Source of the DNA: Naegleria gruberi
Taxonomy: Eukaryota
Reading direction: 5' to 3' (one strand)
Assembly (NCBI GenBank): GCA_000004985.1
Contig: GG738914.1
Length of the DNA stretch: 64,000 nucleotides
A program made the translations under genes and the position numbers. The notes under the pieces are model-generated. The model was not told the origin of the DNA and made no database searches. It was given only the letters and a program-made list of their open reading frames with translations. Of this stretch, positions 1 to 4,365 are shown in pieces; the first letter of the stretch is position 1, and each line of letters opens with the position of its first letter.

Positions 1-677
1 GGTTTTCAAATTATTTATTTACCCTATGCAGATGGTATTAGAAAATTACAAGAATTTACAAATGAACAAACACCAACTGATAAACATATTCAATTAGCTA
101 AAAAGATTACAAAGAAATTAACAATAGATTTTAATCCACATGAATTTACAAATCCATCACTTCAACAATTTTATCAATCATTACAAGCATTAGCTTTAGA
201 ACATTCAAATATTGAACAAATTGAAGATGTTTTAAAACCTGATAAGGAGGGTATGAAGAAGTATGAAAATTTAATGAATGAATTTAAAGATATGATATTC
301 CCTTCTGATTATGATCCTGATTCTAAAAAGTTGACAAAATCAACAACACGTACTTCTTCTTCAAAGGTTAAGAAGGAAGAAGAAGAAGAAGCAACAACAG
401 CAGCAGCAGACTCTCAAGATGTATCTGAATCAACATCTAAAAAGAAAACTGCAACACGTAAAAAGACTAATGATTCCAAGAAACGTAAAAAGGCAGAAGA
501 ATCTGAAGAGGAAGAAGAAAAAAAGCCAAAGAAAAAGAAGGCTGAATTATCTGAATCTGATGAAGAAGAAGAAGAAATTGATATGGTACAATTAATTAAA
601 GATGGTAAAGCAGATAAATTGAAAGTAGATATTTTGAAAGAATTTTGTAAACAATACAAATTGAAAGTGAGTGGAAG
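1..677 (+). CDS. Ku70 (XRCC6-like) C-terminal portion, partial CDS; it enters from upstream of the window and runs into the N-gap
   Basis: Frame-1 translation from nt 1 reads GFQIIYLPYADGIRKLQEF...NPSLQQFYQSLQALALEHSNIEQIEDVLKPDKEGMKKYENLMNEFKDMIFPSDYDPD. An acidic/basic linker (EEEE, KKRKK) follows, then VDILKEFCKQYKLKVSG, which resembles the Ku70 SAP motif (compare human LKEACRAYGLKSG). The ORF is open from position 1. Confidence 0.65.
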
Positions 678-727
678 NNNNNNNNNNNNNNNNNNNNNNN
701 NNNNNNNNNNNNNNNNNNNNNNNNNNN
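678..727. other. assembly gap (50 N)
   Basis: Run of exactly 50 n, a scaffold-gap convention of unknown true length. It interrupts the Ku70 SAP-domain coding region. Confidence 0.95.
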
Positions 728-768
728 ATTATTTAAATTATTATAATATAAATTAATTAAATTATTTT

Positions 769-1404
769 TCATTGAATATCAACTTGTTCTTGAGCTAGTT
801 CAATATTCCAAATTGACATGTGTGACATAAAGCCTTCATAAAATCCAAAATTTGGATTTCCTTTCATAGCATAACCAATACATAATTTATCCATAACAGG
901 TTTATATAATTTATCAATGGATGTATTAACATTTTTATCCAATTTTCCATTTAAGTAAAATTTTAAATTTCCATTTTTAAAAGTAAAACAACAATGATTC
1001 CATTCATTAATAATAACATTAGATGATGAAGATTGACCACATATTTGAATTGACACATTGTCATTTCTACTTCCTAAGAATCTAATCTTATTTTGGTAAA
1101 TGTCAAATCCAAATCCACCAAAGCCTTCACCTGCCACACATGAATCAAATATTCTGACATCTCCAGATTTAGTAGGTTTAATCCATGTCATCATTGTTAA
1201 TTGTGATACTTTTTCATCATTACTATTTATATCATATAATTGTTTTGGAATTGTCATTTGAAAATGAATACTATTTTTAAATGAAAATACTTGATTTAAT
1301 CCATCTTGATCGTTATTAGATAATGAAGAAGAATTATTAGTTGGAATTGTTTCTTCAAACAATGATGGTGACTGATGGGTTGTTGAGGTTTGTTGTTGTC
1401 CCAT
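769..1404 (-). CDS. pentraxin/LamG-like (concanavalin A-like lectin fold) protein, copy A of a tandem duplicate
   Basis: 211-aa ORF. It contains NEWNHCCFTFKNGNLKFYLNGKL and a C-terminal GFYEGFMSHMSIWNIE, resembling the pentraxin HxCxS/TW...FWVDGK core and the terminal beta strands. Upstream on the same strand, MSDVMLQQRLQLSYDDEFYKFIFQTYKKK (1296-1493) is out of frame because of an A9 homopolymer, whereas copy B has A10. Confidence 0.45.
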   Translation of the reverse strand: MGQQQTSTTHQSPSLFEETIPTNNSSSLSNNDQDGLNQVFSFKNSIHFQMTIPKQLYDINSNDEKVSQLTMMTWIKPTKSGDVRIFDSCVAGEGFGGFGFDIYQNKIRFLGSRNDNVSIQICGQSSSSNVIINEWNHCCFTFKNGNLKFYLNGKLDKNVNTSIDKLYKPVMDKLCIGYAMKGNPNFGFYEGFMSHMSIWNIELAQEQVDIQ

Positions 1405-1652
1405 TTTTTTTTGTATGTTTGAAATATGAACTTGTAAAACTCATCATCATATGATAATTGTAGTCTCTGTTGTAACATAACATCACTCATCAATTAAATA
1501 ATTTTCATGATTATTTATTAGTATTATTATATTCACTGAAAATAACCATTTTCAAAATTTACAAATATCCACACAAATACTAATTTAAATTAGAAAATAT
1601 TGTAAATTCCTAATTAATAATGTTTTTCATTATTCAGAGAGAATTTCCAATA

Positions 1653-2390
1653 TTAAGAACTATCATAATTCAATGCAGAGGCAGTTAGTAAATTTGATGA
1701 TGATGTGTTATTTTTCTTCTTTTTCTTCTTTTCATTTTCATCTTTTCGTTTTCTCTTTTTTACTTCCACAATTTCTAATTGAGAAATTAAATCTTCTTTT
1801 TCCAAAGTTTGTTCCACTAATTCATCTGCTGATACTACTCCAATATTATCAATACTATCAATACCACTATTAATACTTGTATCTTTAATTACAATATGAG
1901 ATTCTTGTAAATATTTCTGAATTTCTTCCTTTTCCTTATTAATAATTTCCAATCTTTCATTCTTTAATTTTTCTTCCTGTTCCTTTAAATAGAGAATATC
2001 ATCTTCATCAAGTGATCTTGGTGCTTGATTTCCAATAACTTGTTCTAATTCTTGTTGTTTTTTCAATTTATTTTCCATTAATCTTTCATAGAGTGGTCTT
2101 GTATCGGCTTCTTCTTCTTCATCTGCTAGTGATGATTCTCTAGATTCTAATAGAGAGGTCCATTTAGGATTTGAATGTTGTTGATTAGATGTGGATGATG
2201 ATGATTCATTATTTAGGCTTGTTTCTTCTTGTTGATCAACATCATTGTATTCCGAAGATGATGATTTAAATTCTAATTTTGTTCTCGATGAAAAAGTATC
2301 TGCTAGTTTTTTCTTTGCATTAGTAGTGGTAGTAGTAGTAGTATTGCTATTAGTGGTGGTATTGAATGGAAGATTAGAGTGATCCATCAT
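1653..2390 (-). CDS. NIP30/FAM192A-like protein (PA28gamma-interacting family), copy A
   Basis: 245-aa acidic protein. TRPLYERLMENKLKKQQELEQVIGNQAPRSLDEDDILYLKEQEEKL matches the conserved NIP30 N-terminal domain pattern (SLYERLQEQK...LDEDE..FL). A charged coiled-coil tail follows. Confidence 0.5.
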   Translation of the reverse strand: MMDHSNLPFNTTTNSNTTTTTTTNAKKKLADTFSSRTKLEFKSSSSEYNDVDQQEETSLNNESSSSTSNQQHSNPKWTSLLESRESSLADEEEEADTRPLYERLMENKLKKQQELEQVIGNQAPRSLDEDDILYLKEQEEKLKNERLEIINKEKEEIQKYLQESHIVIKDTSINSGIDSIDNIGVVSADELVEQTLEKEDLISQLEIVEVKKRKRKDENEKKKKKKNNTSSSNLLTASALNYDSS

Positions 2391-2447
2391 AATTTTTATT
2401 TTTTTAAATTTAAAATTTATTATTTATTTTGAAGATGTAGCCTAGTA

Positions 2448-2497
2448 NNNNNNNNNNNNNNNNNNNNNNNNNNNNNNNNNNNNNNNNNNNNNNNNNN
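2448..2497. other. assembly gap (50 N)
   Basis: Run of exactly 50 n between the two copies of the ~1.6 kb tandem repeat. Confidence 0.95.
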
Positions 2498-2499
2498 GA

Positions 2500-3040
2500 C
2501 ATGTGTGACATAAAGCCTTCATAAAATCCAGAATTTGGATTTCCTTTCATAGCATAACCAATACATAATTTATCCATAACAGGTTTATATAATTTATCAA
2601 TGGACGTATTTACATTTTTATCCAATTTTCCACCAAACCTGTTATGGATAAATTACATGTATGTGGATACATGTAAATGTGGTTACATATGAATCAAATA
2701 TTCTGACATCTCCAGATTTAGTAGGTTTAATCCATGCCATCATTGTTAATTGTGATACTTTTTCATCATTACTATTTATATCATATAATTGTTTTGGAAT
2801 TGTCATTTGAAAATGAATACTATTTTTAAATGAAAATACTTGATTTAATCCATCTTGATCGTTATTAGATAATGAAGAAGAATTATTAGTTGGAATTGTT
2901 TCTTTAAACAATGATGGTGACTGCTGGGTTGTTGAGGTTTGTTGTTGTCCCATTTTTTTTTTGTATGTTTGAAATATGAACTTGTAAAACTCATCAATAT
3001 ATGATATTTGTAGTCTCTGTTGTAACATAACATCACTCAT
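2500..3040 (-). pseudogene. pentraxin/LamG-like gene, copy B, disrupted by an internal deletion
   Basis: About 97-99% identical to copy A at both ends. Roughly 450 bp of coding sequence (copy A ~961-1160 onward) is replaced at 2633-2700 by ~60 bp that includes an inverted copy of the adjacent sequence. The resulting ORF ends DSYVTTFTCIHIHVIYP*. The N-terminal extension is in frame here (A10). Confidence 0.55.
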
Positions 3041-3214
3041 CTATATTAAATAATTTTCATGATTATTTATTAGTATTATTATATTCACTGAAAATAACCA
3101 TTTTCAAAATTTACAAATATCCACACAAATACTAATTTAAATTAGAAAATATTGTAAATTCCTAATCAATAATGTTTTTCATTATTCAGAGAGAATTTTC
3201 AATATTAAGAACTA

Positions 3215-3940
3215 TCATAATTCAATGCAGAGGCAGTTAGTAAATTTTGATGATGTGTTATTTTTCTTCTTTTTCTTCTTTTCATTTTCATCTTTTCGTT
3301 TTCTCTTTTTTACTTCCACAATTTCTAATTGAGAAATTAAATCTTCTTTTTCCAAAGTTTGTTCCACTAATTCATCTGCTGATACTACTCCAATATTATC
3401 AATACTATCAATACCACTATTAATACTTGTATCTTTAATTACAATATGAGATTCTTGTAAATATTTCTGAATTTCTTCCTTTTCCTTATTAATAATTTCC
3501 AATCTTTCATTCTTTAATTTTTCTTCCTGTTCCTTTAAATAGAGAATATCATCTTCATCAAGTGATCTTGGTGCTTGATTTCCAATAACTTGTTCTAATT
3601 CTTGTTGTTTTTTCAATTTATTTTCCATTAATCTTTCATAGAGTGGTCTTGTATCGGCTTCTTCTTCTTCATCTGCTAATGATGATTCTCTAGATTCTAA
3701 TAGAGAGGTCCATTTAGGATTTGAATGTTGTTGATTAGAAGTGGATGATGATGATTCATTATTTAGGCTTGTTTCTTCTTGTTGATCAACATCATTGTAT
3801 TCCGAAGATGATGATTTAAATTCTAATTTTGTTCTTGATGAAAAAGTATCTGCTAGTTTTTTCTTTGCATTAGTAGTGGTAGTAGTAGTATTATTGCTAT
3901 TAGTGGTGGTATTAAATGGAAGATTAGAGTGATCCATCAT
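3215..3940 (-). CDS. NIP30/FAM192A-like protein, copy B
   Basis: 241 aa, near-identical to 1653-2390. A 3-nt and a 1-nt indel near the stop change the last ~15 residues (…NNTSSKFTNCLCIEL* versus …NNTSSSNLLTASALNYDSS*). Confidence 0.5.
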   Translation of the reverse strand: MMDHSNLPFNTTTNSNNTTTTTTNAKKKLADTFSSRTKLEFKSSSSEYNDVDQQEETSLNNESSSSTSNQQHSNPKWTSLLESRESSLADEEEEADTRPLYERLMENKLKKQQELEQVIGNQAPRSLDEDDILYLKEQEEKLKNERLEIINKEKEEIQKYLQESHIVIKDTSINSGIDSIDNIGVVSADELVEQTLEKEDLISQLEIVEVKKRKRKDENEKKKKKKNNTSSKFTNCLCIEL

Positions 3941-4365
3941 AATTGATGAAGATAAATATCTTTTATTTTTTTAAATTTAAAATTTATTAAAATATTAATT
4001 TTGAAGATGTAGCCTATTGGACAAGCAATCACTCAATATGACAAAGTAATAATTCTGCTATTTTGTGTATTGCTAATGGTTGAACCATTTTAATCCAAGA
4101 ACTTGTTCCAAATAACCACTTGAAAACCTGTGGGTTAAATATTGAATGCGAAACTTTCCACAGTTAATAATTTTTACTCAGATGAACCTTTGACACACAA
4201 AGTAAGACAGATAACAATTTATAACTCAATATTTATATCACATGTCGATTCGCATAATAGAGGTTGCTTATCAATACATTGAATTATAAATAAATATTCA
4301 AAAATCAAAAATCAAAAAAACTCATACACGTTAATTCATCATCCACACACCTGCTGAGAGCGAGA

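Follow-up and report, generated by a model that had tools for sequence, protein, structure and literature searches.

A perfect 21-nt inverted repeat beside a deletion in one of two near-identical LamG-like gene copies of Naegleria gruberi: a probable short-range template-switch scar

How did one of two near-identical versions of a LamG-like gene of Naegleria gruberi come to carry a deletion filled, in part, with an inverted copy of its own flank, and are the two versions separate genes at all? Both are found in a 64,000-nucleotide stretch of contig GG738914.1 (assembly GCA_000004985.1), referred to here as the window, the sequence of which we take to be that of the JGI Sanger draft of strain NEG-M. 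The window is AT-rich (G+C 32.6%), its long ORFs are densely packed, and only two assembly gaps interrupt it. These gaps bound the contig of copy A, while copy B forms the left end of the next contig, from 2498 to approximately 4019 (Table 1). Both units consist of a LamG-like ORF and a FAM192A/Fyv6_N gene on the minus strand. The two FAM192A ORFs match N. gruberi proteins at 100%, and one 233,110-bp scaffold carries both. To the right of the units lies a patatin-like phospholipase gene. The product of the left neighbour (window 1-677), a gene interrupted by the first gap, has a Ku70/Ku80 C-terminal arm (PF03730, E = 1.4e-18) and, after it, a low-complexity linker of acidic/basic character and, by our own reading, the apparent start of a SAP motif; that an end-joining factor adjoins an end-joining-like scar is a coincidence.

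Table 1. Features of the two LamG-FAM192A units and of the copy B junction, in window positions.
Feature	Position	Strand	Description
Assembly gap 1	678..727		exactly 50 N; between the Ku70-like gene contig and the copy A contig
Copy A	728..2447		1,720-bp contig with a gap on each side; intact LamG-domain ORF and FAM192A/Fyv6 gene copy 1
Copy A LamG-like ORF	769..1404	-	211 aa; Laminin_G_3 (PF13385), E = 1.4e-17, profile positions 15-150 of 151
Segment in A, absent from B	950..1135	-	186 bp, approximately aa 91-152 (62 codons)
8-mer CCACCAAA	1115..1122	+	in the deleted segment; identical to B 2630-2637, which spans the left junction
FAM192A/Fyv6_N gene, copy A	1653..2390	-	EFC37805.1 / XP_002670549.1, 245 aa
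Assembly gap 2	2448..2497		exactly 50 N; separates A from B
Copy B distal LamG remnant	2498..2632	-	equals A 815-949, 97.8%; out of frame with the proximal part
Left arm / donor	2566..2586	+	TAATTTATCCATAACAGGTTT; also in copy A at 883-903
B-specific insert	2633..2684	+	52 nt, in place of 186 bp; 57 nt counting ACATA (2685-2689)
Right arm	2635..2655	+	AAACCTGTTATGGATAAATTA; reverse complement of 2566-2586 without mismatch; lacking in copy A
Truncated copy B ORF	2642..2953	-	103 aa, ends YVTTFTCIHIHVIYP-stop inside the insert; EFC37806.1 / XP_002670550.1 (NAEGRDRAFT_74413), equals P0009
Insert tail	2656..2689	+	34 nt, quasi-repeat TTACATGTA-TGTGG / ATACATGTAAA-TGTGG / TTACATA
Copy B proximal homology block	2685..3944		equals A 1136-2394, 98.5%; 14 mismatches, 4 gaps
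FAM192A/Fyv6_N gene, copy B	3215..3940	-	EFC37807.1 / XP_002670551.1, 241 aa; C-terminus frameshifted by a 2-bp deletion

The protein encoded by copy A is a Laminin_G_3 (concanavalin A-like lectin/glucanase) domain protein, its ORF scoring 64.7 bits against PF13385 with a gathering cut-off of 27.6. A HMMER homologue search of 1.84 billion representative proteins returned two full-length relatives, namely P0007 from an ENA metagenome (54% identity) and P0008 from another N. gruberi scaffold (46%), the latter annotated as "LamG domain-containing protein". The same search returned P0009, a protein of 103 aa with 96% identity to copy A residues 1-90. A first homologue search with copy A had come back empty, missing even P0009, so negatives from that tool are weak. 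The intact 211-aa ORF itself did not turn up in the protein collections searched. The neighbourhood of P0007, the closest full-length relative, is unrelated to the N. gruberi locus and does not reveal its prior state.

Two side observations concern the ends of this ORF. A T-run at its 5' end measures 9 nt in copy A (1395-1403) and 10 nt in copy B (2944-2953); with 10 T, the LamG ORF gains 29 upstream codons (MSDVMLQQRLQISYIDEFYKFIFQTYKKK-MGQQQ...), which with 9 T are out of frame. The better-preserved copy A may thus have a frameshift of its own at the T-run, or a sequencing error in the homopolymer may account for the difference. At the other end, the ORF terminates after ...EQVDIQ, 41 nt short of gap 1 (window 728-771), and three relatives (P0007, P0008 and P0082) run 130-150 aa past the matching EQV/DEV position. 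This C-terminal part was not found anywhere else in the window. The true length of gap 1 may far exceed 50 nt, with a 3' exon concealed in it; alternatively, this family member may be naturally short.

Aligned by blastn, copies A and B share two collinear homology blocks, between which the segment present in A is replaced in B by the insert. The B-type SNP states in these blocks are G at 2531, C at 2605, T at 2611 and C at 2737. The net change in copy B, -134 bp, is not divisible by three; the frame is therefore shifted and the distal remnant lies in another frame. The missing residues, approximately 91-152 (...AGEGFGGFGFD...RFLGS...EWNHCCFTFKNG...FYLNG), constitute the most conserved block in the family alignment with P0007 and P0008. 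Since copy A and both of these relatives keep the core segment lost in B, the ancestral state is A-like and B is derived.

The consequences for the reading frame are direct. The stop codon of the copy B ORF is supplied by the insert, which also encodes the last 13 residues of XP_002670550.1, and the ORF matches no Pfam family. With 62 core codons lost, the frame shifted and a stop in the insert, copy B cannot make the Laminin_G_3 domain. On the gene strand the insert reads GTAACC...AACAG, and an intron within it was considered and rejected, as no GT-AG intron (20-250 nt) restores the frame while retaining the distal domain.

The most conspicuous component of the insert is its right arm, which forms a perfect 21-nt inverted repeat with the upstream donor, the two arms being separated by 48 nt. 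Across the 64-kb window, no other perfect local inverted repeat exceeds 12 nt, and none of 100 first-order Markov simulations attained 21 nt. When the insert was compared with the window by blastn-short (E = 6e-7), it matched copy A solely via the left arm, at A 883-903. The inverted arm can be extended to 29/32 with three extra bases, and there is no significance beyond the 21-nt core. A pre-existing 16-nt direct quasi-repeat, TACATAATTTATCCAT / TATATAATTTATCAAT, with copies 24 nt apart (2562-2577 / 2586-2601; A 879-894 / 903-918), overlaps the donor arm in both A and B. It offers the new arm a second register, 2587-2601 with 2644-2658, in which 87% of positions are complementary, and it may have favoured misalignment.

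These results refine the picture drawn in an earlier note on this DNA. An inverted copy of upstream sequence some 50 bp further on had been described there, and the perfect 21-nt match at a 48-nt spacing (0/100 simulations) bears this out, as does the absence of the right arm from copy A in blastn-short searches, its presence there having been named as grounds for abandoning the idea. The extent of the change had been overestimated: the coding sequence lost amounts to 186 bp (A 950-1135) rather than about 450 bp, and the insert said to be some 60 bp unlike A, which does contain an inverted arm foreign to A, measures 52 nt, or 57. Nor does the inverted copy open the insert at its first base, two orphan bases (CC, 2633-2634) preceding it.

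Read along the plus strand, the junction runs ...TATCCAATTTTCCA, then CC, then AAACCTGTTATGGATAAATTA, then CATGTATGTGGATACATGTAAATGTGGTTACATA, then TGAATCAAAT..., the block TATCCAATTTTCCA being collinear with A through position 949. The sequence itself shows the AAA with which the inverted copy starts to be complementary to the TTT at 2584-2586; these 3 nt may have acted as the primer. The 8-mer that spans the left junction, CCACCAAA, recurs within the segment deleted from B; it has seven copies on both strands of the 64-kb window, and the chance of one in the deleted segment is ~0.01. Its occurrence at A 1115-1122 possibly marks a further templated piece of 5 nt with a microhomology on either side, CCA and AAA. 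If so, the 8-mer would be composed of CCA, the end of the left flank, and CCAAA copied from A 1118-1122, which would explain the orphan CC.

The tail that follows the right arm comprises approximately 2.5 copies of a TACATGTA...TGTGG motif and has a 10-nt inverted repeat of its own, 2653-2662 / 2667-2676. Its donor was sought in the continued inverted template, in the deleted segment (both strands) and in both flanks, none of which gave a significant match: the eight tests returned p = 0.04 to 0.9, uncorrected, with p = 0.48 for the continued inverted template. A candidate donor at A 1557-1573 (reverse complement, 15/17 matching) was discarded as a chance match, its E value in the window being 8.9.

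Taken together, we consider it likely that a short-range template switch or templated insertion left the junction as a genuine scar, without any function of its own, in one of the two versions of the locus, which are 98.5% identical. Support comes from flanks that are collinear with copy A on both sides of the insert (97.8% and 98.5%). In published short-range models, the products are newly formed inverted repeats with indels at their flanks, the switch points showing 2-3 nt of identity (PMC5453318). A DNA 3' end, in mid-extension within the coding region, would have come off its template and primed anew on the opposite strand ~50-70 nt behind, using the 3-nt microhomology AAA/TTT at 2584-2586. 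It would then have copied at least 21 nt backwards and undergone further, poorly resolved slippage, before returning to the original template 186 bp further on, close to CATGAATC, where synthesis continued. In four-point notation the event would be a '3-2-1-4' with a displaced return point, leaving a new inverted repeat beside a deletion. Counting against a single switch-and-return are the orphan CC and the 34-nt tail, which it leaves over. A two-step reading, which fits slightly better than a single event, would begin with a 168-bp deletion between the CCA triplets at A 947-949 and 1115-1117, after which a local switch would swap 13-18 nt for the inverted copy and the tail. Both the succession of these steps and the setting of the synthesis, replication or break repair, are our inference.

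Among known mutation classes, the four-point model of short-range template switching (Loytynoja & Goldman 2017, PMC5453318) resembles copy B in its collinear flanks, in making a perfect inverted repeat without a pre-existing one, in the switch order 3-2-1-4 and in the 3-nt identity at the switch. The features by which that model is recognised, namely the inverted copy, the collinear flanks F1 and F3 and an ancestral state lacking the inverted copy, are all present here. It differs in that the return point in copy B lies 186 bp ahead, which adds a large deletion, and a single switch-and-return fails to account for 34 nt plus 2 nt of the insert. The model explicitly leaves out multiple rounds (PMC5453318). 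FoSTeS/MMBIR, which proceeds by serial switches at 2-5 nt microhomologies, shares with copy B the combination of a deletion with an inverted templated segment; the microhomologies seen here are AAA at the entry to the inverted copy and, only if the CCACCAAA piece is accepted, CCA. In contrast to the kb-to-Mb copy-number changes that FoSTeS/MMBIR brings about via distant forks, everything identifiable in copy B takes place within ~250 nt, with a net change of -134 bp, and the identifiable donor lies 49-69 nt away rather than in a distant template. The FoSTeS/MMBIR-like origin put forward in the earlier note is therefore retained as regards templated reverse-complement insertion by template switching and given up as regards scale, every identifiable template being within ~70-250 nt, a distance that suits short-range template switching (PMC5453318) or snap-back SD-MMEJ (PMC2943611) better: the family of ideas is right, its scale wrong. 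The scar is a further instance of an already described mutation class.

The same product could also have been reached by double-strand-break repair of the snap-back SD-MMEJ, Pol-theta type, a course that we hold to be possible though doubtful, in which a resected 3' tail would fold back, extend, dissociate, repeat the cycle and finally anneal across the break. Copy B and the SD-MMEJ products described by Yu & McVey (2010, PMC2943611) have in common a deletion accompanied by an insertion that stands in inverted repeat with adjacent retained sequence. Such repair necessarily leaves an inverted repeat containing the insertion, would explain the quasi-repeated tail (TACATGTA..TGTGG, ~2.5 times) as well as a deletion with short microhomologies, and has been described as producing complex insertions from several overlapping local copies (PMC2943611); the tail suits iterative repair synthesis well. 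The published junctions, however, lie mostly less than ~20 bp from the induced break and carry inserts of a few nt, and the copy B insert measures 52 nt, with its donor 49-69 nt away. SD-MMEJ junctions are recognised by their position: one half of an inverted repeat, 4 bp or longer, takes in the junction together with at least one base on each side (PMC2943611). In copy B the right half of the repeat begins 2 nt (CC) past the left breakpoint, so that on a simple reading the junction falls outside the repeat, contrary to SD-MMEJ, and would fall inside it only if CCAAA is a separate templated piece. The sole visible primer repeat, moreover, is 3 nt long, and a literature search for a Pol-theta homologue in N. 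gruberi found nothing. The final sequence would be compatible with either course, and we lean slightly towards a template switch during synthesis over SD-MMEJ.

Both courses presuppose that the junction exists in the genome. It might instead be an artefact, arising from an AT-rich plasmid clone rearranged in E. coli or from a single poor read at a contig end, which we regard as unlikely. The junction does lie 135-187 bp from a contig end that abuts a 50-N gap, a context absent from the earlier note, and draft coverage is typically lowest in such places; the coverage of the NEG-M Sanger draft is presumably of the 8x class. Furthermore, the collections searched hold no second source of the junction, the sole match being the gene model on the same scaffold: a homologue search with the copy B ORF returned nothing beyond that model, exact-protein look-ups with five window ORFs and P0001 gave no match, and scans of JGI metagenome contigs, one for a protein pattern and one for an exact 23-mer, produced no hits. 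Against an artefact, homology to A resumes past the insert for 135 bp at 97.8%, which is not how trailing noise would look. Because two of the three differences in this distal block are synonymous, its source is a B-type molecule that has been under selection, and not A-type reads or base-calling noise. Ordinary chimeric clones fuse unrelated fragments, and a templated inverted insertion at a local deletion is not what they produce. An origin as a simple fold-back chimera of the library was rejected as well, since the orientation becomes collinear again after 21 nt and continues for 135 bp homologous to A.

Granted that the scar is genuine, as we think likely, the version that carries it may be either a tandem paralogue or a misplaced second haplotype, and between these the odds are about even. 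The latter would make A and B two haplotypes of one heterozygous locus that were falsely scaffolded in tandem, B being a null allele, a reading to which we give an even chance and which is compatible with a template-switch mechanism. Naegleria has been described as mainly a heterozygous diploid (PMC9928731). In Sanger assemblies, falsely duplicated haplotype contigs are mostly shorter than 2 kb, show a median identity of 98.1% and stand beside their twin, and a large fraction of such contigs in heterozygous genomes are misplaced haplotypes (PMC2864568). The false segmental duplications reported by Kelley & Salzberg (2010, PMC2864568) are like copy A in being small (<2 kb), gap-bounded contigs ~98% identical to their scaffold neighbour. 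Copy A is a 1,720-bp contig between the only two gaps of the window and shares 98.5% identity with the beginning of the adjoining contig; A 815-2447 aligns to that contig at 97.8-98.5%, indel aside, which is the profile of split haplotypes. From the value that both gaps share, we infer that 50 N is a floor or placeholder rather than a measured length. Copy A departs from those false duplications in extending 87 bp beyond its twin on the left and in the mismatch of its last three bases to the twin's flank (GTA at the contig end, unlike TTG in the right flank of B). The motif CTAGT occurs again at A 795-799, which would allow a tandem junction with a ~15-nt gap, although the chance of this is ~0.09 and contig ends are unreliable. 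The candidate A-to-B join would read CTAGT followed by TCAATATTCCAAATT.

The FAM192A genes provide evidence on both sides of the same question. Four of the five coding differences between the A and B genes are synonymous and one is non-synonymous, the retrieved N. lovaniensis and N. fowleri loci each have one FAM192A copy, and an 852-bp environmental contig from a close relative (L004) has the B state at seven events and the A state at two, in the manner of a third allele; all of these favour haplotypes. Conversely, both disabling changes, the LamG scar and the FAM192A C-terminal frameshift, are on B, as in a decaying redundant duplicate. The frameshift results from a 2-bp deletion at 3247 (relative to A 1696-1697), by which the C-terminus changes from ...SSSNLLTASALNYDSS to ...SSKFTNCLCIEL. 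The conserved C-terminus ...LNYDSS is retained in A, in the environmental P0006/L004 and in the distant P0003, and since all of them retain ...YDSS the C-terminus of B is derived. At the sites where the two genes differ, the odd one out is mostly A (6 SNPs and a 17-nt indel) rather than B (1 SNP and 1 indel). The 17-nt indel, TGATGAAGATAAATATC, is situated just upstream of the FAM192A start, present in B (3944-3960) and L004 and missing in A (2393). No LamG neighbour of FAM192A is present at the retrieved N. lovaniensis and N. fowleri loci, which do not reveal the earlier state in N. gruberi. Immediately upstream of the N. lovaniensis FAM192A orthologue there is a DDE_Tnp_1/DDE_Tnp_4 transposase-like gene (L001, 4497-5753), which is absent at the N. 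fowleri locus (L002). The description of copy B as a newly created pseudogene consequently holds for its destroyed frame (the stop, the 62 lost codons and the lack of an intron rescue), while its standing as a separate pseudogene copy is unproven in view of the haplotype profile.

Finally, the new repeat is also a potential hairpin. The predicted fold of 2550-2700 as single-stranded DNA reaches -25.2 kcal/mol (z = -5.3 against shuffles), which could suggest selection for a structural element, for example a regulatory stem-loop or a small-RNA precursor. This stability, however, is a trivial consequence of the perfect 21-nt copy, and the hairpin is found in one version only, inside a disrupted ORF; no loci related to it were found in the collections searched. 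Selection for such an element is thus very improbable. There is equally little prospect that a newborn hairpin or small-RNA locus has arisen here, which, if transcribed and diced, would act against the intact partner (its arm corresponding to A 883-903). If true, this would represent the birth of a hairpin-RNA gene de novo by template switching in a deep-branching protist, as has been proposed for animal miRNAs.

The biological importance of the scar itself is small, as it represents a well-described mutation class in a gene of unknown role. Its bearing on the annotation is more tangible: XP_002670550.1 is the product of a broken frame, and the intact version, 1.7 kb away, is missing from the annotated proteome. 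Similarly, the apparent tandem duplication of LamG and FAM192A (XP_002670549, XP_002670551) may be an artefact of heterozygosity, in which case gene counts would be inflated. If A and B are alleles, the 134-bp length difference would provide a PCR marker for haplotypes, loss of heterozygosity and possible sex in NEG-M.
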